Source of the DNA: a virus | Reading direction: 5' to 3' (one strand) | IMG/VR virus record: IMGVR_UViG_3300022746_000007 | DNA length: 41,487 nucleotides | Shown here: positions 1 to 41,487 of the stretch, piece after piece | Layout of the letters: the number at the start of each line of letters is the position of its first letter | How positions within the stretch are numbered: position 1 is the stretch's first letter | Made by a program: the position numbers and the translations under genes | Notes under the pieces: generated by a model | What the model saw: only the letters and a program-made list of their open reading frames with translations | What the model was told of the DNA's origin: nothing | The model's database searches: none

Positions 1-127
1 AATACCTGAATAACCTGAGTAACCAGAAATTCCTGAGAAGCCTGAAATACCAGACCAACCACTCCATCCACTAATGCCACTAAATCCTGACCATCCAGAG
101 ATACCACTATCTCCAGAATAACCAGAA
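1..127. repeat. Terminal direct overlap, identical to 41361-41487; implies a circularly closed or permuted genome of 41360 unique bp
   Basis: Direct reading: aatacctgaataacctgagtaaccagaaattcctgag...ctccagaataaccagaa is present at both window ends, 127/127 identical. Confidence 0.95.
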
Positions 128-975
128 ATACCAGACCATCCGCTTATGCCTGAGTAGCCACTATATCCGCTAATTCCACTATACCCAGAGAATCCACTTT
201 CGCCACTCCATCCTGAAATACCAGAAAAACCAGAATAACCTGATACTCCAGAACCAGAGTAACCACTAAATCCTGAAATACCGCTATCACCTGAGTATCC
301 TGAGATTCCAGAAAAACCTGAATATCCGCTAATACCAGACCATCCAGAAATACCTGAGAATCCACTAATGCCAGAATAACCACTAAATCCACTAATTCCT
401 GAATCGCCAGAGAAGCCAGAGATACCACTCCAACCTGACCATCCAGACATACCTGAATCACCGCTATAACCGCTAATACCACTAAATCCACTATAGCCTG
501 AAATGCCAGAATAACCTGAGTATCCTGAGAAGCCTGATGCACCAACTATCTGACCTGCATCAAACCATGCTGAACCATTCCATACCCATAAGTCACCATC
601 GGAAGTAACGATATAAGCATCATTGACATGATTGCCAGTCATAGGCAAATCATCAACGGTAGCTACTTCACCTTTAATGACAATGCTAGTACCTTGTTGT
701 CCGCTAAAGCCTGAAAAACCAGAGAATCCAGAAATCCCTGAATCTCCAGAATATCCAGAGATGCCAGAAAAGCCCGAGTAACCAGACATTCCAGAATATC
801 CTGAATATCCTGAGTAACCAGAATATCCATACAATCCTCTATCAAGATTGATAACTTGTCTAGGAGTAGGAATTACCTCAACATTAATGTTATGAGTTTC
901 TTGAACCTGTACAACAGTATCATTTACTTGAACATCGATATTATCAGGAGTACCTTTAGTGATTTTGACATCCAT
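1..975 (-). CDS. Tail fibre, N-terminal 325 codons of a 754-aa ORF that crosses the circular junction (continues 41360 -> 40071); Gly-X-Ser triplet repeats
   Basis: Minus-strand ATG at 975-973 with an in-frame stop just upstream (984-982). A codon-by-codon check of this frame from 975 to 1 finds no stop. Translation: MDVKITKGTPDNIDVQVNDTVVQVQETHNINVEVIPTPRQVINLDRGLYGYSGYSGYSGYSGMSGYSGFSGISGYSGDSG... The codon phase at base 1 joins the phase at 41360. Missing from the ORF track because it runs off the window edge. Confidence 0.85.
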   Translation of the reverse strand, partial: MDVKITKGTPDNIDVQVNDTVVQVQETHNINVEVIPTPRQVINLDRGLYGYSGYSGYSGYSGMSGYSGFSGISGYSGDSGISGFSGFSGFSGQQGTSIVIKGEVATVDDLPMTGNHVNDAYIVTSDGDLWVWNGSAWFDAGQIVGASGFSGYSGYSGISGYSGFSGISGYSGDSGMSGWSGWSGISGFSGDSGISGFSGYSGISGFSGISGWSGISGYSGFSGISGYSGDSGISGFSGYSGSGVSGYSGFSGISGWSGESGFSGYSGISGYSGYSGISGWSGISGYSGDSGISGWSGFSGISGWSGWSGISGFSGISGYSGYSGI

Positions 976-976
976 A

Positions 977-1456
977 TTAGTTCACCACGCCATCAGAACG
1001 AACCAAGAACAATAAGAAGATAATCTTATCTTGAGCAGGGTTTGTACCATCAGACGGGAAACTAATCTTAATTCGACCACTAAAAGCAACAGGATTTTCA
1101 GCAGCGATATTTAGTTCTGGGTCTGAAGAAATAACATTCCATGTATCTTCATCAATAACTAATGTGAAATAACCTAGAGCATCATCACGATTGACGATAG
1201 GCATAGAAACCGCAGGTGGCTCTGGGTCATAATCTTTAATATCGAAGCTTAATCCAGAGCGAGTATCAACTAGATTGTAGACTTCTCTACGAATAATTTG
1301 AGCATCAATAGTAACGCTAGTTAGGTCAATAGGAAGACCGTCAGTAGTTAATTGGATATTCCAAAAGTCATTCTGGTTATATACAAGCTCGCCAGCAATA
1401 CATTGATTGTTAAAACCACTTACTTGAGTGATTGTGTTCTTACTAAAAAGTGCCAT
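977..1456 (-). CDS. Hypothetical virion/fibre-associated protein (159 aa)
   Basis: ORF in the late operon; its stop at 977-979 lies one base from the fibre ATG; no motif recognised. Confidence 0.5.
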   Translation of the reverse strand: MALFSKNTITQVSGFNNQCIAGELVYNQNDFWNIQLTTDGLPIDLTSVTIDAQIIRREVYNLVDTRSGLSFDIKDYDPEPPAVSMPIVNRDDALGYFTLVIDEDTWNVISSDPELNIAAENPVAFSGRIKISFPSDGTNPAQDKIIFLLFLVRSDGVVN

Positions 1457-2038: not shown

Positions 2039-2305
2039 TTAAGCCTTAACAGTTATTGTTTTTGGTATAGACATATCAATAGGTTCTATATCAATAAATT
2101 GTTTAATAATTTCTTGTTTTAATTCATCCCATCTAGCTTTAGCAGAAATTAAATCAGAGAAATATTCATGCTCTCCAGAAAAAGTATTAAATACTTGAAA
2201 TTGGTCTTCTTCTGTAAAAGTATCTAAATCAACAGGCTGCCAAGAAGTATCTCCATTTTCATGTTCAATTTGCCTAACAGCAAACAATCTTTCATTTATT
2301 GTCAT
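2039..2305 (-). CDS. Hypothetical small acidic protein (88 aa)
   Basis: ATGA start/stop overlap with the upstream gene (2302-2305); late operon. Confidence 0.5.
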   Translation of the reverse strand: MTINERLFAVRQIEHENGDTSWQPVDLDTFTEEDQFQVFNTFSGEHEYFSDLISAKARWDELKQEIIKQFIDIEPIDMSIPKTITVKA

Positions 2306-3411
2306 GATACTGCTCCGTATGCTCTTGATGAACTAGATGAACCACCTGTCCAAGTTATTGTATATCCATTTAATGCAACAGCTTTACCACCTGCTGTACC
2401 TGCATTTTGAGCAGTTCCACTTGGTGCTGTACCATTACCACCAACTCCACCAGCAGAACCACCACTACCGCCAGTCCAAGTTCCAGATGTTGTTCCACCG
2501 CTTGTTAAGTAACCAGTACCACCAGAAGCTCCCCAACCACCACCACCACCTGAAGCACCAATATTATAAGAACCTTTTACTGCATTACCACCCATAGCAC
2601 CGCCACCGCCAGCACCACCACCTCTTCCGTAATCATAATAACCACCATCTGCTGAAACAGCTTTAGAGCCACCAGCACCGCCAGTTCCAGATAATATTCT
2701 ACCGCCACCACCACCAGAAGCGTATGCACTAACCACATTACCATTACCACCAGAAGCACCAACACCACCACCAGAACCACCAGTTGTTTGTGTTTGAATA
2801 TATCCACCAACACCACCACCAGCACCACCACCGCCAGCAGAACTGATGCTACTTACAGCACCAACACCACCAGCACCACCACCGCCACCAATATATCCAG
2901 ATGTATTTGTAACAGTTGTACTAAATCCTAAAGATAATGCTAATGAACCTGCTGTAGCTGATGTAGCTAATCCACCACTACTATTATAAATAGCACCATT
3001 ACCACCTAGACCCATAATGTAACCATTGTTTACCAAAGTTACAGTATCTCCAGATGTGCCACCAGACAATGTCAATCCAGCAGTTCCATTTGATGTTGAA
3101 TATAAATAAATACCACTATTGATTGTGACAGTAATATCTGATTTACCAGCTACATATCCACCAAGAGATGCCACATTTAAAGAAGCATTTGCTGTATTTG
3201 AACTAAATGTGTAAGAAACAGTCGCTCTATTAGATTTACCATAAAAATTAGTTGGCATTGTAATAGCACCACTAGGAACTCCAGCCAATGCTCTTACATT
3301 AGTATCATTCAAACTAATTTGAGTTGTACCATTACCACCCAATTCAATTTCAATAGATTGTCCCGCTGTTGTTCCAGCAAGACTAATCTGACCTGAAGAA
3401 TTCATTGTCAT
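2302..3411 (-). CDS. Glycine-rich tail fibre-like protein (369 aa)
   Basis: The N-terminus MTMNSSGQISLAGTTAGQSIEIELGG...TNVRALAGVPSGAITMPTNFYGKSN resembles a conserved N-terminal module seen in environmental phage fibre proteins. The C-terminal half is long GGGGAGG/SGG tracts. Position is downstream of the J-like protein. Confidence 0.6.
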   Translation of the reverse strand: MTMNSSGQISLAGTTAGQSIEIELGGNGTTQISLNDTNVRALAGVPSGAITMPTNFYGKSNRATVSYTFSSNTANASLNVASLGGYVAGKSDITVTINSGIYLYSTSNGTAGLTLSGGTSGDTVTLVNNGYIMGLGGNGAIYNSSGGLATSATAGSLALSLGFSTTVTNTSGYIGGGGGAGGVGAVSSISSAGGGGAGGGVGGYIQTQTTGGSGGGVGASGGNGNVVSAYASGGGGGRILSGTGGAGGSKAVSADGGYYDYGRGGGAGGGGAMGGNAVKGSYNIGASGGGGGWGASGGTGYLTSGGTTSGTWTGGSGGSAGGVGGNGTAPSGTAQNAGTAGGKAVALNGYTITWTGGSSSSSRAYGAVS

Positions 3412-3413: not shown

Positions 3414-3662
3414 TTAAGGAGTTCCGTAAGCTGAAATATTAGCCAATGATGTTATGCTTCCACCGCTATCCATTGATGCAATTAATGTTCCACCATAATA
3501 AAAACAGAGTTTTCCAGCGACTTCTTCAATAGTAAAATTAGCTGTTGCCAAAATTACAGCATTAGTCGCATTTGGTACGGCACCAGTTACAGCAGAGCCA
3601 CTTAATTGTCCTGCTGAGTTTACATGATTTGCTAATTGGCTTAAATTAAATGCTTGTGTCAT
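3414..3662 (-). CDS. Small fibre-associated protein (82 aa)
   Basis: The N-terminus FNLSQLANHVNSAGQL is typical of phage fibre N-terminal modules; ATGA overlap with the J-like gene. Confidence 0.5.
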   Translation of the reverse strand: MTQAFNLSQLANHVNSAGQLSGSAVTGAVPNATNAVILATANFTIEEVAGKLCFYYGGTLIASMDSGGSITSLANISAYGTP

Positions 3663-6600
3663 ACTGCACCTGTCCTTGAGAAAGTTTGTTGTCCTAATAC
3701 ATTCAATGTACTTGTTGGTGAAGTCGCTAAAGTATAGCTTCCAGTTGTAACTGAATAATCTACTGTCTCTAGTTGCATAACACCATTATTATATAAGTTA
3801 AAGGCATTGGGGTCAAAACTAAAGTTATAATTTGATTGACCTATAACCGTATTAACATCCAAGTTTACTGGATTTCCGTTAGGCTGATTTAAGTTATTTT
3901 GAGACCATTGAATAATCTCTAAATCACCTGTTACTGCACTATTAAATGTAATTGTTTGACCAGTAATATTGTAATCAGATGCCATTACAGCAACACCGTT
4001 CAGGAACATAAATTCATATCCATTATTTAGGGTAAACCCTGATGCTGTATATGATGCCTGATTTGATAATGAAACCGCATTTCTTGTAAATGAATTATAT
4101 GTCGCAAAAGTAGAAGAATTAATTGATTTCATGCTAATGATAGTAATAATATCCCCAGCAGTTCTTCCTGTTCCAAATGTTACATTACCTGAATTGTCTG
4201 TATATTCACTAGGGTTTAGTATTAATCCATTTTCAAATACAAGACAGTTTCCAGTAACATAACCAGCACCACGACTAACTGAAAATACAGTTTGACCTGA
4301 CGATGCTGAATATGCTGTCATAGAATAATAAAAACTATCTGGAGCAGCAATACCAACAATACGACCATAAATATCTGCTGTAATAGTGCCTGCCACAAAT
4401 GTTTTCTGATATACACCAGTACCAAAATCCAATAACTGAGCCAATGAAGCAATAATCTGACCTTGATTATCATTAGTAATAGCAATTTCACCAGTTCCTA
4501 CAGTAGTAGTTCCTGTCTGAATTAATTGTCCAGTACGCTGTGATAAATCAATAATATTTGTACCAGTTGGCAATCCATTCCAAATAGATATGTCATAGTT
4601 AATTGCATCAATTGGTACATATCTACCAGAACCAGCAGCTTGCGATATTCCACCAACACCATAACTAATTGCATTAGAACCACGAGTGCAATATAACAAA
4701 TAGTTTGAAGAACCAAATGTTGCTGGATACCAAACATAATCTGAGGGATTTGAACTAGGTACTGTAGTGGTTTGATTAGAAATACCAAAATATGTTTTGC
4801 CTGCTGGACTAAAGTCAAATCCTGCTCCAGTATTACTTGTTCCATAAGCGACAGCTAAATATCTTTCAGGATACCTAAATGTCATTGGTCTCCATTGGAA
4901 TAATGTACTTGGTGGGCTATAAATAGAAGAGCCAAGGCTATTTACCATTCTACTAAAGAAGTACCAATTGCCAGCAGGAATGTCTGTTAAATAAATTAAT
5001 GGTAATGATGTATTAATATCATAAGGATTACCATTAGCTTGTATTTCTGTAGTACCTGCAAATAACATTTGGTCTGATGTTGGCGATGCGTATGCTGAAT
5101 ACCATAATTCTGCATATTGTGTAATTCCAGAAGAACTTGATGTTATTCTTACAGAAAATGTTGGGGTAGCAGCTACAGGATATTGTGAAATTACAGCAGG
5201 AGATGTAAGAGTACCGAAAAATGTTGGGTCTCCAAGACCAGTATTAGGTACAGTCGCAAACTGTGTAATTGGAGCATCATTGTATACTGATGGGTTATAT
5301 TCCATCAATGTTAATGAGACTGTAACAATTCCATTATTATCAATATTTTGGACACACTTACCAATTCTAAATAATTTATTTACCCAGCCATAATTAGAAT
5401 TTGTTAATGTAACCACATCTCCAGCTTCTAATTGAAGACCACTAAAATCTACTTGAACTTGAACCTGTAAATCTTCTCTACATGATTTCAAGAATCTTGT
5501 TGCTAAATATTGCGCTCTTACATCATTATTTACTAATGGTAAATTAATAGTCTGTTTATTTACAGGCTCATTAGGATAAAGCAATGATGGTGCTATTTCT
5601 GCCAAATCAAATATTGCTGTATTGAAAGCGTCTTGTTGAGATTTATCTGGGAACTGTACTTCAGCAATATTATATGAAGCTGCAATATCCAATGGTGTAA
5701 TTTGAATAGCGGAAACAATATTGCTATCATTTAATGCTAAAGCTACAGAATAACTTGGGGTTTGAACAATAGTACCCCATTTACCTGTTATCTCATTGTA
5801 TTTAATTAAACAATCACAACAAGAAGCCATATCTTGTAAGTTATCCATCACAATTCTAGATGTATCAATTACACCATCGAATTTAAATCTAGGAATAGTA
5901 CCAGTACCACCAGTATTAGGAGTATAGTAAAAAGTTTGATTACTATAAGATGTTAAATCGGCAAGACTGGCTGTATCAATTTGAGATGTTGGGATAGCAC
6001 AACCATATATAGTATTTGTTAAATAATCATAAATAACATCACCAGTATTTGTTCTAGTATTTATAATTTGAAATCTAGTTTGTTGTAATGCTGAAATACT
6101 TGCTTTTTGGCTGTATGTCAAATGAACAATTGCAAAAACACAATTACTCATTAATTTATTAGAATCCCATGTATATGTTAATCCAGCACTCTGCATAACA
6201 TCTATGGCTGACAATGTTGAATTTACAGGATTATTAGAGCCATTGTTATAAAGGAATATTTGAATCTTACCTGCTACAGTTGTATCAACTACACCAGTAG
6301 ATTCATCAGTTAATGATGCAACAGTATATCCATCTGTATCAAAGGCAACCTTTTTACCACTATAGTAAATATCGCCAAATGAAATAGTATCTGACCCAGT
6401 ACCAGTAACTTCACATAAAGCAAGAACATAATACATTTCTTGATTATTCTGTGAAATACTAAGGTCAATACCTGTGCCACCGACATAAGCAGTACCATAA
6501 ACAATAGGTAATTTGTTATTAGTTGCTGGAGCTAATTGCTGTCTATTTCCTAAATTAGCAGACATTCCAGATGGGTCAAATGTTTGTGGACTAAAGAAAG

Positions 6601-6796
6601 CTTTAGAAATAATGGTAGATGCCACCATATTGATAGCAAAAGCTACCGCAGTTCCCCAAATAGTTAAAGTACCACCTGAAACAAGTATCCCACCGATAAC
6701 TTCAGCAGCAATAATAGAACCAATAGCAAATGCAGATGTTGTAAAAGTTATCAGGCTTAAAAAAGCAAATATAAACTTAAACATTACTGCACCCAA
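3659..6796 (-). CDS. Tail tip / host-specificity protein (lambda gpJ-like central fibre), 1045 aa, with a hydrophobic Gly-rich N-terminal segment
   Basis: Largest tail ORF downstream of the tape measure and tip genes. NRQQLAPATNNKLPIVYGTAYVGG resembles the conserved P-V-V-Y-G motif near the start of gpJ-type proteins. The first ~70 aa are hydrophobic. Confidence 0.6.
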   Translation of the reverse strand: MGAVMFKFIFAFLSLITFTTSAFAIGSIIAAEVIGGILVSGGTLTIWGTAVAFAINMVASTIISKAFFSPQTFDPSGMSANLGNRQQLAPATNNKLPIVYGTAYVGGTGIDLSISQNNQEMYYVLALCEVTGTGSDTISFGDIYYSGKKVAFDTDGYTVASLTDESTGVVDTTVAGKIQIFLYNNGSNNPVNSTLSAIDVMQSAGLTYTWDSNKLMSNCVFAIVHLTYSQKASISALQQTRFQIINTRTNTGDVIYDYLTNTIYGCAIPTSQIDTASLADLTSYSNQTFYYTPNTGGTGTIPRFKFDGVIDTSRIVMDNLQDMASCCDCLIKYNEITGKWGTIVQTPSYSVALALNDSNIVSAIQITPLDIAASYNIAEVQFPDKSQQDAFNTAIFDLAEIAPSLLYPNEPVNKQTINLPLVNNDVRAQYLATRFLKSCREDLQVQVQVDFSGLQLEAGDVVTLTNSNYGWVNKLFRIGKCVQNIDNNGIVTVSLTLMEYNPSVYNDAPITQFATVPNTGLGDPTFFGTLTSPAVISQYPVAATPTFSVRITSSSSGITQYAELWYSAYASPTSDQMLFAGTTEIQANGNPYDINTSLPLIYLTDIPAGNWYFFSRMVNSLGSSIYSPPSTLFQWRPMTFRYPERYLAVAYGTSNTGAGFDFSPAGKTYFGISNQTTTVPSSNPSDYVWYPATFGSSNYLLYCTRGSNAISYGVGGISQAAGSGRYVPIDAINYDISIWNGLPTGTNIIDLSQRTGQLIQTGTTTVGTGEIAITNDNQGQIIASLAQLLDFGTGVYQKTFVAGTITADIYGRIVGIAAPDSFYYSMTAYSASSGQTVFSVSRGAGYVTGNCLVFENGLILNPSEYTDNSGNVTFGTGRTAGDIITIISMKSINSSTFATYNSFTRNAVSLSNQASYTASGFTLNNGYEFMFLNGVAVMASDYNITGQTITFNSAVTGDLEIIQWSQNNLNQPNGNPVNLDVNTVIGQSNYNFSFDPNAFNLYNNGVMQLETVDYSVTTGSYTLATSPTSTLNVLGQQTFSRTGAV

Positions 6797-7218
6797 CTTT
6801 CATCTAGTTTAGAAAAGCCAAACTTATCGTATTTGATGTCAGGACTAGAAATCATTTTAGCTATTGTAAACATAATGATTCGACCCTCATCCTTCATCTT
6901 TTTACCATATTCTGTATATGATTTTAACAGTCTATACCCTGTTGTGGAATGTCTTTTATCAGGTTTTACATACCAAGCTAACTCATGAAGGGTGAATTTA
7001 GTATCGTCCCAAATGCAAGGTACTGTAATACCCATTATAAGACCAACATTTTCTTCAATAAATATGATGCCTTTTCCAGCTAATATGGTATCAAGAAGAC
7101 GATTCCAGTAATCAGGGTTATCCAATACTTGATATTGAGGAATTGGGCTTTCATTTCTAAATGCCTTCATCATCTCTATTATTGCTGTTTTATCGTATTT
7201 GTTAGCTTGTCTTATCAT
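6784..7218 (-). CDS. GNAT-fold N-acetyltransferase-like protein embedded in the tail-tip module (144 aa)
   Basis: IRQANKYDKTAIIEMMKAF... N-terminus, WYVKPDKRHSTTGYRLLKSYTEYGKKM (acetyl-CoA-binding-like segment) and YDKFGFSKL C-terminus follow the GNAT pattern. Confidence 0.5.
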   Translation of the reverse strand: MIRQANKYDKTAIIEMMKAFRNESPIPQYQVLDNPDYWNRLLDTILAGKGIIFIEENVGLIMGITVPCIWDDTKFTLHELAWYVKPDKRHSTTGYRLLKSYTEYGKKMKDEGRIIMFTIAKMISSPDIKYDKFGFSKLDESWVQ

Positions 7219-7820: not shown

Positions 7821-8494
7821 AGAACGACCTCAAATGCTTTAAATGAGCCATCCCATTGTACAAATGAATCATTAGTCATAGGTATAAGAGTATATGTCGG
7901 ATATGCTCTTAATAATACAGGGAAAGTGATTCCAGTATATGTATTTCCACCAAGTGCTTGAGTTGTACCATATTGACCGATTACTGCATTAGATAAAGTT
8001 ACTGTAGTTAAAATAGTTCTATGAACTGGAATACTTACAGTAGACCCAGAACCTCTTTGAATATCAGCAGTTGCAATATAAGCATATCGTCCAATTTGTA
8101 GGAAATCTCCAGTCTTGACAATGTAAGCTGTAGATGCAATAGAAGGAAGACTTCCTAATACAATAATCTTTCCTGAACTAGATGTCTGGTACTGACAAGC
8201 TGAAATCTGAGCAGAAGTCATATCACCCTGATAGGCAATATAATTCAACCATCCAGTAGCACCAAAATTAAGATATTGTTCGTTAATCTTATCGTTTACC
8301 CTAAGTGTAGACAATACGCTTCTATTCTTTGCATAAGACAAATAGTTCATTGGCTTGATGTCAAAGGAGAATGGCTGAACACTTAGTAATTCAGATACGC
8401 TAATTCTTTGGTTACGACTTAATACTTGACCAACAAACTTTTGGTCATTGATACCAACAGATTCAGCGATAGATAAAATCGTATTTAATGACAT
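7817..8494 (-). CDS. Distal tail protein candidate (225 aa)
   Basis: First ORF after the tape measure; assigned by position only. Confidence 0.4.
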   Translation of the reverse strand: MSLNTILSIAESVGINDQKFVGQVLSRNQRISVSELLSVQPFSFDIKPMNYLSYAKNRSVLSTLRVNDKINEQYLNFGATGWLNYIAYQGDMTSAQISACQYQTSSSGKIIVLGSLPSIASTAYIVKTGDFLQIGRYAYIATADIQRGSGSTVSIPVHRTILTTVTLSNAVIGQYGTTQALGGNTYTGITFPVLLRAYPTYTLIPMTNDSFVQWDGSFKAFEVVL

Positions 8495-8496
8495 AT

Positions 8497-10884
8497 TTAC
8501 CTCGATGCTGGCAAGCCACGACTTGCTGATTGATTAGCTGCAAATACAGCATTTTTATTACTTGCCAAAGCTTGAGCAAATGACTGAGTATCAATTGCAT
8601 TGATATTGTAATTGTTTACAACAGTAGAGCCACCCATCATATCTGAAACTTGGTTATTAGGAATAATTGTTCCTGAAGTATTTGGAATAAATAATTCAGC
8701 ACCACGCTCACCTACAATAGAGGGGGAATTAGCAGGTAGACTACCACCAGTAGCATTAGTTTTTAATCCAAATGACGGAAAACTAGCTCCACTTGTTAAA
8801 AAATCAGTACCAGATTGACCGCTTGAAAATAATCCACTTAGGAAATTACCTGCTCCACCTAACATTTTAAGCATTTGAGCTTTTGCATAAATAGCAAAGA
8901 TGTCTAGGATTACAGACTTAGTAAAATCTTTAAATGCAAATTTTCCTGTCTTAACAAATGTTTCAACAGCATTAGCCATACTATTAAATACAGAATCATG
9001 AACATTCTTTAATAATTTTAATTGTTCACCTAGACCGATAACATTTTCTCTTTGCTTGCCAAGGCTTTCTTGTCTTTGTTTAAGGGCTTCTTTTTCTGTA
9101 TCTGTTAAGCCACTAGCCTTCATAATATCAGCAATATTTTTTTCTGTTTCCAATTTAGCCATTGCAATTTGCAAATCGGTATCAGATAAGGCAATATTTT
9201 TCTGATATAACTCTAGCTTTTCTCTTTCTTTATCAATAGATAATTGTTCAGCAGACTGTCTATCTTCAAATGTTTTCTTTTGCTGACGATTTAATTCTTC
9301 TTTTTGAGCTTGACCAGCAGATTCAATAGCTTGAACTTTCTCTAAGAACGCTTTGTATTCTTGAGGAAGTAATCCCGTACCTTTGTCTTTAATTTGTTTA
9401 TCAAAATCAATAGCAGCTTGAGCAAGCTTTCTTCTTGTCTCTAGTTCTATCTTCTCTTGTTGAGAAGCACCAGCCTCAAGAATATTGATTCTATCATCAA
9501 CAGCTTGTTTTACTGATTCTGTCTGTAATGCTAACTCTCTTTCGAATCCACCAGCCTTTTTATGTCTTTCAATAGCTTCAGATTCTTTTGCAGCTTTCGC
9601 AGCAGCAGCTTCAGCATCAGCAGCATCTTTCTGTAAATCAGCAACAGCTTTAGCAATATCAGTTTTTAAAGCATTTACATTTGCTTGATTTAAACCTTTG
9701 ACATTTGCCATTTCAGCATATTTAAGCTGCATTAACAAATCTGTTACTTTATCTGCTTTGGTCTGAGGTGCGCCAATCTTTTGCATACCATCAACGACTT
9801 CACTTACAAAGCCTTTGATGTTTCTCCATAATTTCTCAATTGAACCTAGGCGTTCATCATATTTCTTTAATGAATCATTGAAAGCATCAGCACCAGCTTT
9901 AGCTGCTAATTGATATTGACCTTGTTTATCTAATTGCTCTAGATATTTATATTGAGATAATGTTAGGAAGTGATACTTTTGATTCAAGGAATCAATTGAA
10001 GATATGCTTCCATTAAATGCAGGAATTAAGTCTTTTGCAACAACATCAGCAGATTCACCAGATAATTTACTAACTCTAGCAATAGCTTCAGCTACAGAAG
10101 ACATTGATTCTTGAGTAAACTTACCAGAAGCTACTAAAGCACCAAAGATTGTCTTAGATTCACCAATAGTTGTATTTAATTTTGTAGATAAAGCAAGAGC
10201 AAGACCATTAAATGAATCTCTAGTAACCCCTGCATATCCATTAGTTAAAATTAAATCATCTCTTAACCTAACAAATGCTTCATGCCCTTTATAGGCTTCA
10301 TAAGCAAGAGTTCCAACTACAGCAGCTACAGCACCTAATCCAACTCTTAATGGTGTCAATACTTGCTTGAAAGCATTAAACACATTAGTAATACCGCCAA
10401 ACTGGTCTTTTAATTGACCACCTTGTTGCAATAGAACAAGCATTGGATTCTGACCGCCAGCTAGTGATGTGATGATGTCAGTAGTCTGATAGCTAAGAGC
10501 TTGAAGTTGATAAGGTGTTAATCCAGCCTTTTGACCAGCAGCATTTAATTGGGCTGTCTTTAATTTACCAGCCTTCTCAGCAGCTAAGTCATAAGCAGCA
10601 GCAGCTTTTAATACTTCATTCTTTAATTCTTGAGTTGCCTTTGATAACTTATAAGTAGGGTCATTCATTTCCCTAGTAACTTTAGCTACCGCAGTTAATG
10701 GTGTTTCTAAATCTTGTGCTGCATAAGTTAATTTAACAATTTCATTCTGGGCTGCAGTTGCACCTGCCTTAATCTCCCGACCCATCTTTTTTGTTTCTTC
10801 AATGGCTTTACTTACACCCTTTTCGAGTTCGGCAACATCCATCCCCATTACAATGCCTAGGCGTGATAAATATTGATTAGCCAT
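8497..10884 (-). CDS. Tape measure protein (795 aa)
   Basis: Long Ala/Lys/Glu/Gln-rich coiled-coil-like ORF downstream of the chaperone pair, with a Gly-rich C-terminal part. At the rule-of-thumb ~0.15 nm per residue this suggests a tail of about 120 nm. Confidence 0.85.
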   Translation of the reverse strand: MANQYLSRLGIVMGMDVAELEKGVSKAIEETKKMGREIKAGATAAQNEIVKLTYAAQDLETPLTAVAKVTREMNDPTYKLSKATQELKNEVLKAAAAYDLAAEKAGKLKTAQLNAAGQKAGLTPYQLQALSYQTTDIITSLAGGQNPMLVLLQQGGQLKDQFGGITNVFNAFKQVLTPLRVGLGAVAAVVGTLAYEAYKGHEAFVRLRDDLILTNGYAGVTRDSFNGLALALSTKLNTTIGESKTIFGALVASGKFTQESMSSVAEAIARVSKLSGESADVVAKDLIPAFNGSISSIDSLNQKYHFLTLSQYKYLEQLDKQGQYQLAAKAGADAFNDSLKKYDERLGSIEKLWRNIKGFVSEVVDGMQKIGAPQTKADKVTDLLMQLKYAEMANVKGLNQANVNALKTDIAKAVADLQKDAADAEAAAAKAAKESEAIERHKKAGGFERELALQTESVKQAVDDRINILEAGASQQEKIELETRRKLAQAAIDFDKQIKDKGTGLLPQEYKAFLEKVQAIESAGQAQKEELNRQQKKTFEDRQSAEQLSIDKEREKLELYQKNIALSDTDLQIAMAKLETEKNIADIMKASGLTDTEKEALKQRQESLGKQRENVIGLGEQLKLLKNVHDSVFNSMANAVETFVKTGKFAFKDFTKSVILDIFAIYAKAQMLKMLGGAGNFLSGLFSSGQSGTDFLTSGASFPSFGLKTNATGGSLPANSPSIVGERGAELFIPNTSGTIIPNNQVSDMMGGSTVVNNYNINAIDTQSFAQALASNKNAVFAANQSASRGLPASR

Positions 10885-11384: not shown

Positions 11385-11385
11385 A

Positions 11386-12179: not shown

Positions 12180-12180
12180 G

Positions 12181-13134: not shown

Positions 13135-13147
13135 TTCTTACTCCTAA

Positions 13148-13645: not shown

Positions 13646-13683
13646 TTTAGATTCCTCGATTAAAAAAATTAATAAACATTATC

Positions 13684-15046: not shown

Positions 15047-15070
15047 TGTATCCCCTTAATATACTTTCCA

Positions 15071-15089
15071 ATGCTCCTTGTGGGAGCAT
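15071..15089 (-). promoter_or_regulatory. Stem-loop just downstream of the major capsid gene (7-bp stem, 5-nt loop)
   Basis: atgctcc ttgtg ggagcat. It lies ~19 nt after the capsid stop on the minus strand and has no U-tract, so it more likely affects mRNA stability or attenuates than acts as a full terminator. Confidence 0.35.
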
Positions 15090-36670: not shown

Positions 36671-36941
36671 ATTACTAGAACATCACCATTTCAGAATTCA
36701 GAATACTCTTTCTTGGAGAGCAGAATACATATTGGCTCATATTGCAGTACATGAAGGCTGCAAAATGGGATTCCTAAGAGACTTCTGTATTAGATACCAT
36801 TCTGTACCTAAAATTGTACATAAACTTGTACAAGATGGATTTGTAGAGATTAAGCAGACTGATAAATTAAGGAAGTTTCTATACCTTACAGACAAGGGAA
36901 AGAACTACATTAATTCTATTGAAGCTTTCTATCAAGCGTAA
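36663..36941 (+). CDS. MarR-like winged-helix regulator candidate (92 aa from the coupled ATG)
   Basis: ILAHIAVHEGCKMGFLRDFCIRYHSVPKIVHKLVQDGFVEIK...YLTDKGKNY; the ATG overlaps the upstream stop (ATGACTAA). Confidence 0.45.
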   Translation: MTKLLEHHHFRIQNTLSWRAEYILAHIAVHEGCKMGFLRDFCIRYHSVPKIVHKLVQDGFVEIKQTDKLRKFLYLTDKGKNYINSIEAFYQA

Positions 36942-37363
36942 GGTCTAGTACCTTTTTCATCGATAATCAACATCTGACCTCTAGGGGTCTCATTTGGATG
37001 GTTCGGGATGCTAACATGAACCCATGTTAGCTCCTGAATTAACTGGTCAAATTGGATGTCAGAAGCTTTAATTACTTCACATATCTCTCTAGGTGTCATT
37101 CCACCAACACGGAAGTCACACGCTGCTCCTACACGGTGCTGTGATGATTCTTTGCTGCCTAGCATTGTATTTAATACAGAACTTCTATAGCCTGAATCTA
37201 CAACCATAGGCTTGCCAATTACTTTACGAACTTCCTCTAGGAAAGCAGCTAATCTAAATAGATTAGCAGAAGCAATCATATTAGGAGTGTTATCAATGCC
37301 TTTTCTAGCACCAGTAGCGGAAAATGTTAGCTCTTCAAGAGTAAAGTGTTCTGATAAATTCAT
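36932..37363 (-). CDS. Endolysin, zinc peptidase M15 family (D-Ala-D-Ala carboxypeptidase fold)
   Basis: DSGYRSSVLNTMLGSKESSQHRVGAACDF carries the SGYR...N...S.H..G.A.D signature; adjacent to the holin. Confidence 0.75.
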   Translation of the reverse strand: MNLSEHFTLEELTFSATGARKGIDNTPNMIASANLFRLAAFLEEVRKVIGKPMVVDSGYRSSVLNTMLGSKESSQHRVGAACDFRVGGMTPREICEVIKASDIQFDQLIQELTWVHVSIPNHPNETPRGQMLIIDEKGTRPYA

Positions 37364-37761
37364 GCTACGCCTTTAAGCTTCTCATAGGTTCTTAACCCAC
37401 CAAGACCTAATAAACCACCCAAAACAGTCATTAAAGTAGTCATATCAAATGAAATAACGATTTCTTGATACTTTAAACCCACTAGAATAAAGTTAATTAT
37501 TGGGAATAATACAAAATGTAATGCAAATGAAATTGAGCAAGTCCAACCTACTGATGGTCTCCACCCTGATTTAAACAAAGAATCTGACTTTGCTTCTTCT
37601 AAATTGACCTGAATTTGTGCTAAATCACGCTGAAAATCTTGGTCATTGATTGCTTTATTTAATTCAGATTTAGCTAATTCTCTAGCATTTGTGTCTGGAA
37701 TTACCCTGTCTAGAATCTTTCCACCAATATCGATTATTGCTGTAACAGGGTCAAATGCCAT
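37360..37761 (-). CDS. Holin, three-TM GTA-holin-like family
   Basis: IIDIGGKILDRVIPDTNAR...SLFKSGWRPSVGWTCSISFALHFVLFPIINF fits the family I recall as GTA_holin_3TM; ATGA overlap with the endolysin gene. Confidence 0.6.
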   Translation of the reverse strand: MAFDPVTAIIDIGGKILDRVIPDTNARELAKSELNKAINDQDFQRDLAQIQVNLEEAKSDSLFKSGWRPSVGWTCSISFALHFVLFPIINFILVGLKYQEIVISFDMTTLMTVLGGLLGLGGLRTYEKLKGVA

Positions 37762-38013
37762 TTAGAACCTCAATCCATGAGTTTTAAGGAAATCTACGAA
37801 TACATAACCTACACCGCAAATACAGAACCAAACAAATCCAGCTAAACTCTTTTCAATAATTGCCTGTCTTAACGCTTTACGCTCTGCTTGTGCTTCAATT
37901 GCCAGCCTAACCCATTGTGCTTCTTCTGGTGTCAAATGGTGGCTGGTAATAGGAACTTCTTTTAATACCGTCATCAACTCTTCTATTAGCTCTTTGCGTT
38001 CTTGCGGTGACAT
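37762..38013 (-). CDS. Membrane-anchored lysis-cassette protein (83 aa)
   Basis: C-terminal TM LAGFVWFCICGVGYVFVDFL; directly upstream of the holin. Confidence 0.4.
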   Translation of the reverse strand: MSPQERKELIEELMTVLKEVPITSHHLTPEEAQWVRLAIEAQAERKALRQAIIEKSLAGFVWFCICGVGYVFVDFLKTHGLRF

Positions 38014-38051: not shown

Positions 38052-38492
38052 TTATTTGAAGTTTTTAATATTATAAATAACTTCTTCAGGAGAGACAAAC
38101 TTCTCTGGGTCAAATGGAGTATCTTCCCACCAGAGGAATTGATTTGGAGCTAAACAATCCTTAGATTTCAATAGATTAATGTTGATATCATGTCCAAAGA
38201 TGGCTGGATTAGATACTGACCATAGGACAATGCCTTTCTTTTCTTGCTGCCAAGCTAAATGTTGGAAGAAACTATCGCAAGATACCCATGTACGACATTT
38301 ATGAAGTAATAAACATAGCTCACTTAAAGATAAGTTTTTCCTGAAATCATCAACAAGTTGTTCCTCACCCTCTACTCCAACCTGTATAATTTCCTCATCA
38401 ATACTCTGGATAACTTGCTTCCAGAAGGGATAGTTTTTTGGATTTGGTTTACCATTGCGTAGTTTTTGAGCGTATGGTGAAATAATAATCAT
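38052..38492 (-). CDS. Glycosyltransferase family 9-like C-terminal domain protein (146 aa)
   Basis: NPKNYPFWKQVI..IIQVGVEGEE...LSLSELCLLLHKCRTWVSCDSFFQHLAW...GIVLWSVSNPAIFGH follows the heptosyltransferase C-domain pattern (K.WP, G..E, sL.EL, DSG..HLA, FG). Confidence 0.5.
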   Translation of the reverse strand: MIIISPYAQKLRNGKPNPKNYPFWKQVIQSIDEEIIQVGVEGEEQLVDDFRKNLSLSELCLLLHKCRTWVSCDSFFQHLAWQQEKKGIVLWSVSNPAIFGHDININLLKSKDCLAPNQFLWWEDTPFDPEKFVSPEEVIYNIKNFK

Positions 38493-40051
38493 TTGTATAA
38501 CTTTCTAAAAGCATCCTGTAAAGATTCTGTCCATTCCCATTGAGCCATTTTCTGATAAATATTCCATCTATCAATATTGCCAAATAATTCAATAGCTTTA
38601 GAAATAGGTTCACCATCAACAATTTCTGGGTAACAAGTAAATATCAATGGGTTTTTTAATTCATTAATAATAGATTTGAATACAACATGGTCTCCCATGC
38701 CACAATTCAATACCACAATAGTGCGGTCTTTATATTTAAGGAAGTTCTGGAAAATTTGTTCATCTTTATCATATAAAGCAGCATTAGTTTCGCTTCTAAT
38801 ACCACCAGTAGGATTCTTTAAATGCCATGTAATTGCATCAGGGATTACCAACAATCTATATCCTTTGAGATGCAATCCATAAGAGAATAAAGTCTCTTCC
38901 CTATGAGCAACTCTAGACAATCCTAAATGATAATCATTAATTCCAGCACGATATAAGAATGAGCAATATAAATGTTCTACTTGCTTAACCCAATTAAGCA
39001 TACCCCATTGGACATTAGGTTCTTTTTCTATATTTTCAATTAAACCAGTAGAGTTCAATGTTTGTAATGGGACTGGTGGAGTGATTACTGAGCCACCAAC
39101 AGCACCAATGCTTTCACTCTTATATGCAGTAGTAGCATAAGTGTATAGTTCTTCTAATACATTAGGTTCTGGAATAGCATCATCATCGACACGCCATACC
39201 CAATCATATCCTGCTGTATTAGCTGCCTGATGAATATGATGCTGACCTTTTTTGCCTGCAAATTTCCACTCCCAAGGAACTCCTTTAACATCTAGCATAT
39301 AAAATAGATGTGCGTATAGAAAGTCTTGCCTTAAATCTTTAGGCTCATCATTATCATCAAATATAACTAATTTATCTGGAAGTTTAGTCTGATTCAATAT
39401 AGCTTGAATAACCATAGGAAGAGTAGAATGGTATCTTCCTCTCGTAGCAATAGAACATAAAACAGTTTCTTTTTTATCCCATGAGCCAATCAATAGATTA
39501 CAATGATTTTCATTAGATAAGGCTTCCAGATACTTACTAATTCTGCCTTCTTCATTAATATAATTAAATTTAAAATTAGGGAAGTTGTATTCTGTTAAAC
39601 CATGTAGCTTATGATGCTCACCCCAAAATCCTTTAGGTTCTTTATGCGGAACTGTTATCAATAAACGCTTGCAATGTTTCTTGAGCTTTTCAATAATCTC
39701 TAAGCCATTATCAAGATGCTCAATCACTTCAAATGCAATGATTGTGTCATATTGCTCTAATTCAAATGTATTGATGTCTGCATGAAAGAATTTAGCATTT
39801 GGATGCCAATCTTGTTGATTAGCTACATCAATAATACGCTTATCATAATCTATACCTGTGTAATCAACAACTCCAAGGAATTGAAATCCATAACCAGATG
39901 AACAGCCAATTTCTAATACTTTTTTACCAAGTATATTCTTAGCAGCCCATGAGTAACGAGCAGTTTCTCGGGCTTCTATTTCATCGCCCTTTAAGAATAC
40001 TGCTCGTTCATAATTGTTTTTTAATTCGTGTTTATATTGTTCTATATCCAT
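38489..40051 (-). CDS. Multidomain SAM methyltransferase - GT2 glycosyltransferase fusion with a GT9-N-like tail (520 aa)
   Basis: VLEIGCSSGYGF (motif I) and IIAFEVIEHL. Then LCSIATRGR...LNQTKLPDKLVIFDDNDEP and WRVDDD (GT-A DxD). The C-terminal TIVVLNCGMGDHVVFKSII resembles the start of a GT9 N-domain. Confidence 0.65.
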   Translation of the reverse strand: MDIEQYKHELKNNYERAVFLKGDEIEARETARYSWAAKNILGKKVLEIGCSSGYGFQFLGVVDYTGIDYDKRIIDVANQQDWHPNAKFFHADINTFELEQYDTIIAFEVIEHLDNGLEIIEKLKKHCKRLLITVPHKEPKGFWGEHHKLHGLTEYNFPNFKFNYINEEGRISKYLEALSNENHCNLLIGSWDKKETVLCSIATRGRYHSTLPMVIQAILNQTKLPDKLVIFDDNDEPKDLRQDFLYAHLFYMLDVKGVPWEWKFAGKKGQHHIHQAANTAGYDWVWRVDDDAIPEPNVLEELYTYATTAYKSESIGAVGGSVITPPVPLQTLNSTGLIENIEKEPNVQWGMLNWVKQVEHLYCSFLYRAGINDYHLGLSRVAHREETLFSYGLHLKGYRLLVIPDAITWHLKNPTGGIRSETNAALYDKDEQIFQNFLKYKDRTIVVLNCGMGDHVVFKSIINELKNPLIFTCYPEIVDGEPISKAIELFGNIDRWNIYQKMAQWEWTESLQDAFRKLYK

Positions 40052-40070: not shown

Positions 40071-41487
40071 TTAAGTTTTGCGAATCATATCATACAATTC
40101 TTTAATTTGTAATTTAAGGCTCACAACTTCTTTTGCTAATTCAACAGCAGAAACAAGAGCAGCATTACCGTAGGCAAGGGACAACTTTCCATCAGCGTCT
40201 GTAAGAACTGTTTCAGGTAACAAATTTTGCATCCCTTGCGCAGACACACCAGCCTGAGTGGCATCCATATCTGTACGGTCATAAATACCAGATTTGACAT
40301 TAGCAAGTTTTTCAATAAAGCCTTCTTGAACAGGTCTCCAGTTTTTCTTTAATGTTTCATCTGAGTAAGCTGTGATGTTGCCAGACATGGTTAAAGAACC
40401 ACTGAAAGTCCTACCACCAGTATTTAAGTACTCAATCCAACTGCCAAAAGAATTACCAGTGATGTTTCGGGTTAACATCCTATTTGCATTATCTTCCCAA
40501 CCCCAAGCTATCTGAGTACCCCAGTAGTTACTTGAGTTAGAATGCCGCATATTTTCAATAAACCACCAAGTGCCTCCAGGGTTATTTGTTACATTTGCAT
40601 CATCGCCTTGGTATCTATATGTGCCAGCAGGCGTATTTTGGAAATCTGTGTTGTAGTTTCCTGATGTGCCAGTTCTTTGAATATAGTTTGAACCGTTTAA
40701 CCAAGTAGCTGAGTTTGCACTTGTTGCAGTAGCAGCATTACCAGTACATGAAGCTGATGAGCCATTTATACTTCCAATGATTGTATTGTTGAAAGTATTT
40801 GTATTTGTCCAAGTATTAGCTGAACCTAATATAGATGAACCTGCTGCTCCACTATATCCAGAATAACCTGATGTTCCTTGTGCGCCTGTAGCTCCAGAAT
40901 AACCTGAATACCCTGATGTACCAGTTGCTCCAGTTGAGCCTGTTGCACCAGTAGCTCCAGAATAGCCAGAATAACCACTTGCACCTTGGCTACCATTGAT
41001 TCCAGAATAACCTGAGTATCCACTAGCACCTGTCGCTCCAGTAGAACCAGTTGCTCCTGTAGCACCTGAATATCCAGAATAACCACTTATCCCAGATGCA
41101 CCATTAATTCCAGAATAACCTGAATATCCTGATGTACCAGTTGCTCCATTTAAACCTGAATAACCAGAAATTCCACTATAACCAGAAGCACCGTTAATAC
41201 CTGAATAACCTGAAATACCACTAAATCCAGATATACCAGAATAACCACTCCAACCACTTACACCAGAACCAGAATATCCTGAGTAACCTGATACACCACT
41301 TCCAGAATAGCCACTAATGCCACTCCAGCCAGAGATACCAGAGTATCCTGACCAACCGCTAATACCTGAATAACCTGAGTAACCAGAAATTCCTGAGAAG
41401 CCTGAAATACCAGACCAACCACTCCATCCACTAATGCCACTAAATCCTGACCATCCAGAGATACCACTATCTCCAGAATAACCAGAA
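40071..41487 (-). CDS. Tail fibre, C-terminal part of the same wrap-around ORF (unique part 40071-41360): Gly-X-Ser/Thr triplets, globular tip, C-terminal Peptidase S74-type intramolecular chaperone domain
   Basis: The frame of listed ORF 40071..40550 stays open upstream through 41487, checked triplet by triplet. Translation: ...SGWSGYSGISGWSG...GATGATGSTGATGASGYSGYSG...AAGSSILGSANTWTNTNTFNNTIIGS...WWFIENMRHSNSSNYW...; AYSDETLKKNW fits the S-D-x-x-x-K motif of endosialidase-type chaperone domains. Confidence 0.85.
   Translation of the reverse strand, partial: SGYSGDSGISGWSGFSGISGWSGWSGISGFSGISGYSGYSGISGWSGYSGISGWSGISGYSGSGVSGYSGYSGSGVSGWSGYSGISGFSGISGYSGINGASGYSGISGYSGLNGATGTSGYSGYSGINGASGISGYSGYSGATGATGSTGATGASGYSGYSGINGSQGASGYSGYSGATGATGSTGATGTSGYSGYSGATGAQGTSGYSGYSGAAGSSILGSANTWTNTNTFNNTIIGSINGSSASCTGNAATATSANSATWLNGSNYIQRTGTSGNYNTDFQNTPAGTYRYQGDDANVTNNPGGTWWFIENMRHSNSSNYWGTQIAWGWEDNANRMLTRNITGNSFGSWIEYLNTGGRTFSGSLTMSGNITAYSDETLKKNWRPVQEGFIEKLANVKSGIYDRTDMDATQAGVSAQGMQNLLPETVLTDADGKLSLAYGNAALVSAVELAKEVVSLKLQIKELYDMIRKT
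41361..41487. repeat. Second copy of the terminal overlap (identical to 1-127)
   Basis: Same as above. Confidence 0.95.

Follow-up and report, generated by a model that had tools for sequence, protein, structure and literature searches.

A proline-free Gly-X-Ser tail-fibre gene cut in two by the ends of a circular phage contig

The window, the whole 41,487-nt stretch of DNA analysed here, is a circular phage contig of 41,360 bp after overlap removal, and it carries a 754-codon fibre gene that is split over the ends of the contig and encodes a shaft of Gly-X-Ser (G-X-S) triplets without proline. The gene is confirmed as real, and its repeat type, found on at least 386 viral contigs, is widespread in environmental phages yet undescribed. 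These shafts form a large natural set that keeps to a strict Gly-(Tyr/Ile/Phe/Trp)-Ser rule and lacks the usual collagen stabilisers. Taken as a whole, the probable explanation is a trimeric collagen-type fibre with a Peptidase_S74 (S74) chaperone and a shaft that may be modified by the enzymes of an adjacent gene cassette.

Recovery and identity of the fibre gene

The window opens and closes with one and the same stretch of 127 nt, and the contig is therefore circular. With this overlap taken out, a minus-strand reading frame starts at the ATG at position 975, runs to base 1, and continues from 41360 to a stop codon ending at 40071, encoding exactly 754 aa; when the ends are joined with the overlap left in, the frame is broken at 331 aa. 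The original prediction of a hidden 754-codon ORF was thus borne out, and the four decoy ORFs listed in its place (144..545, 663..845, 40826..41086, and 41258..41467) are all present. The gene looked hidden because the ORF track omits ORFs running off the contig ends, and gene callers will miss such a fibre gene wherever a circular contig is cut inside it. Features of the locus are given in Table 1.

Since both contig ends lie within the repeat array, the frame could in principle be an artefact, either a misassembled or collapsed repeat or an open but non-coding low-complexity region, and we consider this exceedingly improbable. The longest exact DNA repeat of the array is 21 nt, far under the 127-nt overlap, so that the array holds no repeat long enough to confuse assembly, and the 754-codon frame is open only upon exact removal of the overlap. 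The non-repeat parts of the fibre also have homologues in other phages (52-67% identity), and the same architecture is found in a cultured, fully sequenced phage.

Table 1. Features of the fibre locus in the window, with coordinates, strand, and basis of assignment
Feature	Coordinates	Strand	Basis or comment
Fibre gene, 5' part, codons 1-325	1..975	-	Start ATG at 975
Fibre gene, 3' part, codons 326-754 and stop	40071..41360	-	Continues at base 1 over the circular junction
Terminal redundancy, 127 nt, identical to 1..127	41361..41487	.	Circularisation overlap, to be cut before reading the gene
N-terminal non-repeat segment, aa 1-46	838..975	-	Presumed attachment end
First G-X-Y block, aa 47-97, 17 triplets	685..837	-	Triplet count
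Insert, aa 98-144 (conserved core ~aa 93-145)	544..684	-	Four-stranded β mini-domain within the shaft
Main G-X-S shaft, part one, aa 145-325	1..543	-	Triplet count
Main G-X-S shaft, part two, aa 326-501	40833..41360	-	GAT/GST/GAS/GIN with GYS-GYS towards the tip
Distal non-repeat tip domain, aa 502-657	40365..40832	-	Putative receptor-binding domain
Peptidase_S74 intramolecular chaperone, aa 658-754, and stop	40071..40364	-	PF13884; S658-D-E-T-L-K663
159-aa protein, possibly a fibre adaptor	977..1456	-	65% identical to P19250A_0022
Methyltransferase + GT2 glycosyltransferase fusion, 520 aa	38489..40051	-	PF13489 4.8e-11; PF00535 2.1e-7
146-aa protein, C-terminal part of a split GT9-like glycosyltransferase domain	38052..38492	-	PF01075 3.7e-5

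The fibre gene ends the tail module, after the tape measure (8497..10884; phrog_24, 3e-88) and a J-like tip gene (3659..6796). The protein matches PHROG tail-fibre families, with no tape-measure family among its best 25 PHROG families, and a syntenic homologue is encoded by a siphovirus that is in culture; the predicted role of the protein as a tail fibre agrees with all three observations. Its collagen-like nature, also predicted, is supported by a match to Pfam Collagen (PF01391) of 193.1 bits (gathering threshold 27.2; 5e-58) in 8 stretches, and the Pfam and PDB collagen matches rest almost wholly on Gly periodicity. Searches of the PDB with the whole fibre and with the pure G-X-S core returned only such Gly-periodicity matches, to collagens of animals and to the generic GAPGSQ chain 8zxl, for whose name, "spindle/axial fibril", nothing relevant was found in the literature. 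The protein is best read as a tail fibre, side or distal, of a siphovirus resembling P19250A.

The homologue in Methylophilaceae phage P19250A is P19250A_0023 (APC43908.1; GenBank KX815270.1), a protein of 1201 aa. P19250A resembles the window in its succession of genes for a J-like tip, a small protein, a Gly-rich protein, a 159-aa protein, the fibre, a methyltransferase, a GT2 glycosyltransferase, and a 147-aa protein, and four of the fibre-flanking proteins are 62-66% identical between the two. P19250A_0023 has GYS, GFS, GIS, and GWS triplets and is 67% identical to the window fibre over aa 30-145 (tblastn), a stretch that takes in the insert and the C-terminal part of the N-terminal segment. 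It differs in being longer, with a second internal non-repeat domain, and in its C-terminus, which does not match the tip or S74 region of the window, and its methyltransferase and GT2 are encoded by two genes whereas the window has one fusion. The GenBank label of P19250A_0023, "tail length tape-measure protein", is wrong by position and content, so that the reference-phage homologue of the fibre carries a false annotation. Because P19250A and its host are cultured, the G-X-S question is testable now.

The 159-aa protein has no Pfam or PHROG family. Its gene precedes the fibre gene in about 19 loci, and it accompanies the fibre in P19250A-type loci. A Gly-rich protein is encoded at 2302..3411. 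Megablast of window positions 8000-21000 against cultured phages gave no match.

Composition of the G-X-S shaft and its flanking modules

The fibre contains 134 G-X-Y triplets in five runs (aa 47-97, 145-243, 246-347, 350-358, and 361-501) of 17, 33, 34, 3, and 47 triplets, respectively, with Gly at each third residue. Residues at X are Tyr (41), Ile (29), Phe (16), Ala (15), Trp (11), Ser (7), Asp (5), Thr (4), Leu (2), Met (2), Gln (1), and Glu (1), and those at Y include Ser (112), Thr (10), Asn (4), Gln (3), and Gly (3). Among the 402 repeat residues there are no Pro, no Lys or Arg, and six Asp or Glu. The forecast of about 135 proline-free Gly-X-Ser triplets with aromatic or aliphatic X was therefore close, and the layout expected ahead of them, an N-terminal segment of ~46 aa, ~17 triplets (aa 47-97), and an insert of ~50 aa, was found as described. 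Three GSGVSG steps said to shift the Gly register are real one-residue Gly-X-Gly interruptions, at aa 241-246, 345-350, and 356-361, and the shift of the distal third to GAT/GST/GAS/GIN mixed with GYS-GYS pairs is visible in the translation. Gly-X-Gly interruptions are typical of non-fibrillar collagens.

Collagen stability is normally ascribed to imino acids, hydroxylation, or charge pairs. The fibre shaft has neither imino acids at X and Y nor the many charged pairs of Scl-type collagens; proline and charge pairs are both absent, and Tyr, Phe, Trp, or Ile is exposed beside Ser in almost every triplet. The same bias holds class-wide: in 30,016 triplets from 154 proteins, Y is Ser in 86.7% and Thr in 3.7%, with Pro below 1% and Lys plus Arg at about 0.2%. 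Arrays of relatives total up to 622 triplets per ORF. No description of the repeat type was found in the literature, where only the lipase GXSXG motif was retrieved, and it has been in GenBank since 2016 in the misannotated phage P19250A. The statement that the repeat is not the textbook form stands in that its composition departs from all experimentally studied collagen-like proteins found, but it is not a one-off.

At the DNA level, the second part of the shaft (40833..41360) has a higher-order period of 108 nt, and Gly and Ser codon use in the fibre equals that of the remaining genome. Repeated k-mers and the longest exact repeat (21 nt) match those of synonymous-codon shuffles (n=300; mean for the longest repeat 21.4, SD=3.1), which argues for neither active codon scrambling nor recent duplication. 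The suggestion that synonymous codons are deliberately mixed was thus not upheld, as the repetitiveness is that of random synonymous choice, whereas the accompanying view that the array did not arise by recent duplication was. Recent tandem duplication was ruled out, with TRF likewise giving weak periodicities only.

The insert is a general β mini-domain that is also used inside Pro-rich collagen-like fibres, where it is flanked by GPQ or GPT (P0037, P0056, P0061, P0080, P0087, P0095, and P0097). Its core is modelled by AF2 at a pLDDT of 87-93, versus 40-50 for the G-X-S flanks (monomer model), and a search of BFVD with it gave 44 matches (E<=1e-3), in phage tail-fibre and collagen-repeat proteins; we infer that it serves as a trimer or register node of the fibre. 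It belongs to no Pfam family and has no Pfam match even at E<=10, for which reason a relationship to DUF2793 was rejected. Foldseek against the PDB gave no significant hit, the best being Geobacillus virus E2 ORF18 (E 0.048), and collagen XV/XVIII trimerisation domains appeared at E about 1, a lead only. PDB matches to gelsolin and villin were set aside as a short motif with no significant stretch.

The tip is 52-66% identical to tips of proteins that have no G-X-S shaft or have Pro-rich shafts, and some Pro-rich G-X-Y proteins (P0050, P0062, P0068, and P0073) carry the same tip plus S74 module; hybrid arrays exist as well (P0031, P0058, and P0063). The tip has no relative among PDB sequences, and the AF2 monomer model of tip plus S74, built from four sequences, has a pLDDT of 35, too low for a fold search. 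The C-terminus matches PF13884 over aa 658-711 with 29.5 bits for the whole protein and 32.5 bits for the C-terminal fragment (cutoff 22). Within its S-D-x-x-x-K motif, alignment A2 shows no variation at S, D, L, and K, and S658 and K663 are presumably the Ser-Lys catalytic dyad identified from characterised S74 members. The original prediction mentioned neither this chaperone nor the adjacent methyltransferase and glycosyltransferase genes, and it did not foresee that the insert is shared with Pro-rich fibres.

The glycosyltransferase cassette and the fold of the shaft

The methyltransferase + GT2 fusion gene starts 19 nt downstream of the fibre stop and is overlapped by 4 nt by the gene for the 146-aa GT9-like protein, so that virus-encoded glycosyltransferase genes are linked to a structural gene at the fibre locus. 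The fusion protein is 62% identical to the products of P19250A genes 0024 and 0025 and 58-62% identical to those of locus L005, and the 146-aa protein is 63-66% identical to its P19250A and L005 homologues. In locus L147, GT9 is fused with the methyltransferase and GT2, and its GT9 match covers model positions 102-218 with 23.3 bits (cutoff 22). No membrane segments were found in the cassette proteins and no terminator-like site between the fibre and cassette genes and the lysis genes; the cassette is apparently co-transcribed with the fibre gene. No PDB relative was found for the GT2 profile and no close characterised relative for the cassette enzymes, whose only NCBIfam signals are generic, for GT-A and class-I methyltransferases.

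P19250A has cassette homologues of 54-71% identity, as does an unrelated 57-kb contig in which the fibre follows the capsid genes, and cassettes of ~40% identity lie upstream of the fibre (L105 and L106) or form one ORF overlapping the G-X-S gene (L147). A G-X-S array was present in 68 of the 80 viral loci picked by GT2 alone, where arrays end mostly about 600-700 or 1250-1300 nt upstream, and in 100 of 113 GT2 loci overall, raw counts that overstate independence because many of these loci share ancestry. Clustering of GT2 at 80% and 70% identity left arrays in 34 of 36 and nine of nine clusters, respectively. The GT2 family is in practice virus-only, with at least 424 viral contigs versus three MAG contigs in 185,579 species genomes, all three of phage-like size. 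Loci picked by array lacked a cassette in the DNA examined in 40 of 75 cases (about 12 of the 40 have at least 5 kb downstream), and a Pfam search of the neighbours tested in cassette-less L090 and L123 gave no glycosyltransferase. Unless genes for the enzymes lie at another site, glycosylation by the cassette therefore cannot be required universally. The usual position of the cassette beside G-X-S arrays suggests that the shaft serines are glycosylated.

In chain order, the fibre consists of aa 1-46, the 17 triplets, the ~50-aa β mini-domain, a 357-residue G-X-Y segment with three one-residue breaks, a tip domain of ~155 aa, and the C-terminal S74 chaperone. Domains suited to trimerisation or registration thus adjoin the array, and by analogy with S74 proteins and prophage collagen-like fibres the chaperone and the internal β node would bring three chains into register. 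The G-X-S segments would then zip into a collagen-type triple helix of ~115 nm in total (0.286 nm per residue), and self-cleavage of the chaperone immediately ahead of S658 is predicted to yield a mature fibre of 657 aa, the tip of which may bind the host. The downstream methyltransferase, GT2, and GT9-like enzymes may O-glycosylate shaft Ser and add a methyl cap to the glycan, a leading inference to which we give a little less than an even chance. Such a glycan could shield and stabilise the helix, possibly via sugar-aromatic stacking. It is more tentative still that G-X-S represents a distinct, glycan-dependent collagen, in which cytoplasmic glycosylation of Ser in nearly every triplet and sugar-aromatic stacking would replace proline and charge pairs along a helix of 100-500 nm.

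Of the folds offered by the original prediction, triple helix, β-solenoid, or silk-like, the first is the most likely; the latter two are unlikely because the same flanking modules are also combined with ordinary Pro-rich G-X-Y shafts. On the Brodsky-lab host-guest scale, Tyr, Phe, and Trp at X and Ser at Y are reportedly among the least helix-favouring residues, so an unmodified triple helix of G-X-S sequence is predicted to be weak. That scale, the low AF2 monomer confidence in the G-X-S flanks, and the alignment of PDB collagens on Gly only are what recommend a shaft of non-collagen type, be it a polyglycine-II bundle, a β-rich or amyloid-like stack of Tyr, Phe, and Ile, or a flexible, possibly glycosylated, mucin-like tether. 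We regard such a shaft as improbable, since modules specific for trimers (S74 and the β node) flank the array and are found attached to Pro-rich arrays as well, the interruptions are of the Gly-X-Gly type, and the array grades into GAT and GST triplets with the register kept. Polyglycine-II bundles, as in the snow-flea antifreeze protein and phage S16 gp38, are made of short Gly-rich PPII helices and turns in a compact bundle, whereas the fibre has unbroken runs of 99-141 residues (33-47 triplets), with up to 622 triplets in relatives, which leave no room for such turns.

A triple helix could also do without the glycan, held by its trimerisation modules, by hydrogen bonds of Ser hydroxyls and water, and by aromatic contacts, while the cassette acts elsewhere; it might act on the host envelope (to mask receptors or exclude superinfection, in a way tied to fibre specificity) or on a virion protein such as that encoded at 2302..3411. 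This reading, which we find rather unlikely, accommodates the roughly half of G-X-S loci that have no nearby cassette, including L090 and L123, where the neighbours tested gave no glycosyltransferase, and accords with the one biochemically studied phage collagen-like fibre, which needs no glycosylation to be stable (PMC3368898). It also fits the usual action of GT9 relatives on LPS cores (Pfam description) and the conventional linking of phage glycosyltransferases to host conversion or DNA protection (PMC8024684). Against it, the GT2 here has no membrane anchor, is packed in a late structural and lysis unit, and belongs to a family near-absent from cellular genomes, prophages included (3 in 185,579). 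No integrase was found among the larger ORFs tested, and GT2 tracks G-X-S arrays across backbones, gene orders, and one fusion, while the fibre tips vary.

Should the shafts prove to be triple helices, they would embody a new form of collagen stabilisation and offer a proline-free scaffold expressible in bacteria, and a glycan-dependent shaft would be a new chemical route to building collagen. If the cassette glycosylates them, tail-fibre glycosylation would be widespread in abundant freshwater and coastal phages, with a bearing on host recognition, stickiness, and virion stability.

Comparison with characterised fibres and glycosylation systems

Characterised S74 domains (~100 aa, S-D-x-x-x-K) trimerise the upstream fibre and then cleave themselves off. 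The S74 fibres and spikes, such as the K1F endosialidase and the T5 L-shaped fibre, share with the window fibre a C-terminal S-D-x-x-x-K domain of ~100 aa, and the nearest S74 relatives are the Ralstonia phage RSP15 tail fibre, whose C-terminus is 62.6% identical to aa 649-747, and the distal subunits of Vibrio T4-like long tail fibres. Upstream of the domain, characterised members have a β-helix, triple β-helix, or coiled coil, whereas the window has a 400-residue G-X-S array and its cleavage is predicted. No report of tail-fibre glycosylation in a phage of a Gram-negative aquatic bacterium is known to us.

The E. coli O157 prophage proteins EPclA and EPclB are trimeric and triple-helical, with nucleation by a C-terminal domain (Ghosh et al., 2012; PMC3368898). 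Like the window fibre, they have a phage tail-fibre G-X-Y domain between globular modules and a C-terminal trimerisation domain; unlike it, their collagen domain is much shorter, has an ordinary polar, Pro-containing composition, and lies alongside an α-helical coiled coil, and the C-terminal domain is PfC rather than S74. They were shown to be unglycosylated, and no dedicated modification genes were reported for them (PMC3368898).

Among viral modification systems, PBCV-1 A64R is a fusion of GT-A and O-methyltransferase domains and Mimivirus L230 glucosylates viral collagen-like proteins (PMC4691112), and glycosylation of mycobacteriophage virions (capsid and tail) is known, as cited in PMC12582341. 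The window cassette differs from the characterised viral glycosylation enzymes in having no detectable close sequence relationship to them. Bacillus anthracis BclA (GPT repeats; PDB 1wck) matches the fibre at 1.3e-6, and BclA glycosylation genes adjoin the BclA gene. BclA and the Mimivirus fibres resemble the G-X-S shaft in the hydroxyl residue carried by nearly every triplet, in their display on the particle surface, and in the presence of glycosylation genes in the same genome. They depart from it in that BclA has Pro at X and Thr at Y, and that the Mimivirus collagen-like proteins are modified at hydroxylysine, whereas glycosylation of the shaft is predicted here.

The fibre gene across the contig junction

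Window positions 1..127 are identical to 41361..41487, an exact 127-nt terminal redundancy that is probably an assembler k-mer overlap, and the contig is therefore a 41,360-bp circle. Its minus strand carries an ORF that starts with an ATG at 975, passes through base 1 to 41360 and stops at 40071, so that the hidden ORF of the original prediction is indeed open for 754 codons once the overlap is removed. The gene seemed hidden because joining the ends with the overlap kept breaks the frame after 331 codons and because ORFs running off contig ends go unreported; the four decoy ORFs found in its place exist and come from this DNA read in other frames. Assembly ambiguity was ruled out, as the longest exact repeat is far shorter than 127 nt. 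Genes across a circular junction escape linear ORF callers.

The fibre protein matches Pfam Collagen (PF01391, 5.3e-58) and, at its C-terminus, the Peptidase_S74 intramolecular chaperone (aa 658-711, stronger with the C-terminal fragment alone), its S658-D-E-T-L-K663 motif is invariant among homologues, and it falls in PHROGs tail-fibre families. The genome is of siphovirus type (~36% GC), and its structural genes end with the fibre, after which come two enzyme genes, the holin and the M15 endolysin. Pfam, PHROGs and position in the tail module bear out the earlier interpretation in part: the protein is a collagen-like tail fibre, here assigned by sequence together with an S74 chaperone, and the repeat type is not a one-off.

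The layout and composition of the repeats agree with the first account: 134 G-X-Y triplets fall in five runs, where X is chiefly Tyr (41), Ile (29), Phe (16), Ala (15) or Trp (11) and Y is chiefly Ser (112), then Thr (10), and the repeats contain no Pro, no Lys or Arg and only six acidic residues. The three register-shifting GSGVSG steps are present as Gly-X-Gly interruptions, as is the distal-third change to GAT/GST/GAS/GIN mixed with GYS-GYS pairs. Synonymous codons had been called deliberately mixed, a claim that failed, since the array uses Gly and Ser codons just as the genome outside it does. Repeated k-mers are as numerous, and the longest exact DNA repeat (21 nt) as long, as in synonymous-codon shuffles (n=300; mean longest repeat 21.4), and periodicities detected with TRF are weak apart from a single higher-order unit of 108 nt close to the tip. 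The DNA of the array is thus old, and the constraint on it is at the protein level. The 108-nt unit is the sole trace of segmental duplication in the array.

Features of the window and of the compared viral contigs (L-numbers)
Feature	Location	Strand	Details
Gly-rich protein, 369 aa	window 2302..3411	-	GGGGAGG runs, not G-X-Y; between J-like tip gene and fibre; sole family match phrog_10745
J-like tip gene	window 3659..6796		
Acetyltransferase-like protein	window 6784..7218	-	phrog_1249, 1.2e-9; inside tail module, adjoins J-like gene
Tape measure	window 8497..10884		
Other structural genes			large terminase, portal, major head protein
Replication genes			Erf, SSB, NinB, helicase
Lysis cassette	window 36932..38013	-	83-aa protein, GTA_holin_3TM holin (5e-16), Peptidase_M15 endolysin (2e-17); directly 3' of enzyme genes
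146-aa protein with GT9-like match	window 38052..38492	-	overlaps 520-aa fusion by 4 nt
Methyltransferase + GT2 fusion, 520 aa	window 38489..40051	-	starts 19 nt after fibre stop
Higher-order unit, 108 nt (36 aa)	window 40893..41158		2.5 copies, 76% identity; distal GAT/GST/GYS shaft
Insert, ~50 aa	window 544..684	-	predicted four-stranded β mini-domain, AlphaFold2 pLDDT 87-93
Fusion ORF, 661 aa	L147 7864..9849		methyltransferase (Methyltransf_24, different Pfam family) + GT2 + GT9-like
G-X-S protein, 676 aa	L147 9833..11863		start overlapped by fusion-ORF end; almost no C-terminal domain
Giant G-X-S proteins, 2,000-2,436 aa	L102 454..7389; L107 4835..11770; L098 8342..15649; L143; L144		up to 622 triplets; contigs up to ~100 kb
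Three or four tandem G-X-S genes	L089/L090 3694..14842; L092; L099		adjoining terminase gene; 73-140 kb contigs

Modules and fold of the shaft

The tip and S74 region share 52-66% identity with the C-termini of proteins without a Gly-X-Ser (G-X-S) array and 58-66% with those of proteins with ordinary Pro-rich G-X-Y shafts. The model of the insert, a non-repeat segment within the shaft, gave 44 structural matches (E<=1e-3) in phage tail-fibre and collagen-repeat proteins of very different phages, and in many database proteins the insert is flanked by Pro-rich triplets. It belongs to no Pfam family and lacks a significant relative among solved structures; its fold resembles the trimerisation domains of collagen XV/XVIII weakly and below significance. 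By its predicted structure, the insert is a widespread, unnamed β mini-domain that occurs in Pro-rich as well as in G-X-S collagen-like phage fibres.

The sharing of tip, S74 and insert with Pro-rich fibres argues that the G-X-S array fills the canonical collagen-like slot, and would place it between the same trimer-specific modules as canonical arrays elsewhere. In host-guest peptide work on the triple helix, aromatic residues at X and Ser at Y are among the least favourable, and no solved structure in the PDB has this repeat, the matches aligning by Gly only. By analogy, a collagen-type triple helix is most likely the fold of the shaft, because of the shared slot, the unbroken triplet runs (up to 47) and the precedent of prophage collagen-like fibre domains, which form trimeric triple helices with a C-terminal domain as nucleus (PMC3368898). 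The predicted shaft length is then ~115 nm (357 + 51 residues at 0.286 nm per residue).

A subclass of fibres and its enzyme cassette

The same composition was found in ~65 of the 120 best database hits, among which the Ser-at-Y fraction is bimodal (>=0.6 or <=0.25, few intermediates), and a pattern scan of IMG/VR yielded at least 386 viral contigs with such arrays. In 154 unique ORFs (30,016 triplets), Ser occupies 86.7% of Y positions and Thr 3.7%; Tyr, Ile, Phe and Trp together make up 73% of X, with Pro at <1% and Lys plus Arg at ~0.2%. Some 36-140 kb contigs carry two to four G-X-S genes in tandem, and the shafts of the giant proteins, if triple-helical, would be ~0.5 µm long. No description of the subtype was found in the searchable literature. 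G-X-S fibres are a large, undescribed, proline-free aromatic/Ser subclass of collagen-like fibres, usually accompanied by a virus-specific glycosylation-type cassette.

This cassette comprises methyltransferase, GT2 and GT9-like modules, and no terminator-like site separates the fibre/enzyme unit from the lysis genes. On an unrelated 57-kb contig, as in phage P19250A, the same modules are separate (identities 54-71% over these two), and on the 57-kb contig the fibre follows the capsid genes. Relatives of the GT2 occur on at least 424 viral contigs. When loci were picked by GT2 alone, without regard to arrays, 68 of the 80 best had a same-strand G-X-S array, usually ending one gene-length upstream of the GT2; those lacking one were mostly contigs with too little upstream DNA. 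Pooled, 100/113 loci had an array (34/36 clusters at 80% identity, 9/9 at 70%), and L036 is the sole well-flanked locus without one. Conversely, loci picked by array alone had the cassette in 35 of 75 cases, in four arrangements that include cassettes of ~40% identity upstream of the fibre. Outside viruses, 185,579 species genomes yielded the GT2 family on three MAG contigs, G-X-S arrays being present on two of these, and the family is essentially virus-only.

Comparison with known systems

The most likely reading, which we offer tentatively, is that the cassette glycosylates fibre serines. PBCV-1 A64R is a fusion of a GT-A with an O-methyltransferase thought to aid capsid-glycan building, and Mimivirus L230 glucosylates viral collagen-like proteins (PMC4691112); virion glycosylation also occurs in mycobacteriophages, according to work cited in PMC12582341. 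The chief caveats to the reading are the large phages with no cassette nearby, the shared ancestry of many of the loci and the fact that the cassette enzymes have no close characterised relative; on the large contigs with tandem arrays, no glycosyltransferase was found among the neighbours tested. Membrane segments are absent from all cassette proteins examined.

The nearest cultured relative is the Methylophilaceae (LD28) phage P19250A, and two papers that deal with its phage group are silent on both the fibre and the enzymes. The fibre homologue (KX815270.1, 5911..9516) is annotated as a 'tail length tape-measure protein', an annotation error, as content and position fit a collagen-like fibre. 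In the position of the 369-aa Gly-rich protein, P19250A has a longer one (926 aa) whose label, 'PE family protein', looks unfounded. The homologue, gene 0023, is 67% identical to the fibre over aa 30-145, insert included, and shares its GYS/GFS/GIS/GWS triplets and neighbour genes; the three cassette modules are present as separate genes. Questions about the fibre are directly testable in a cultured phage.
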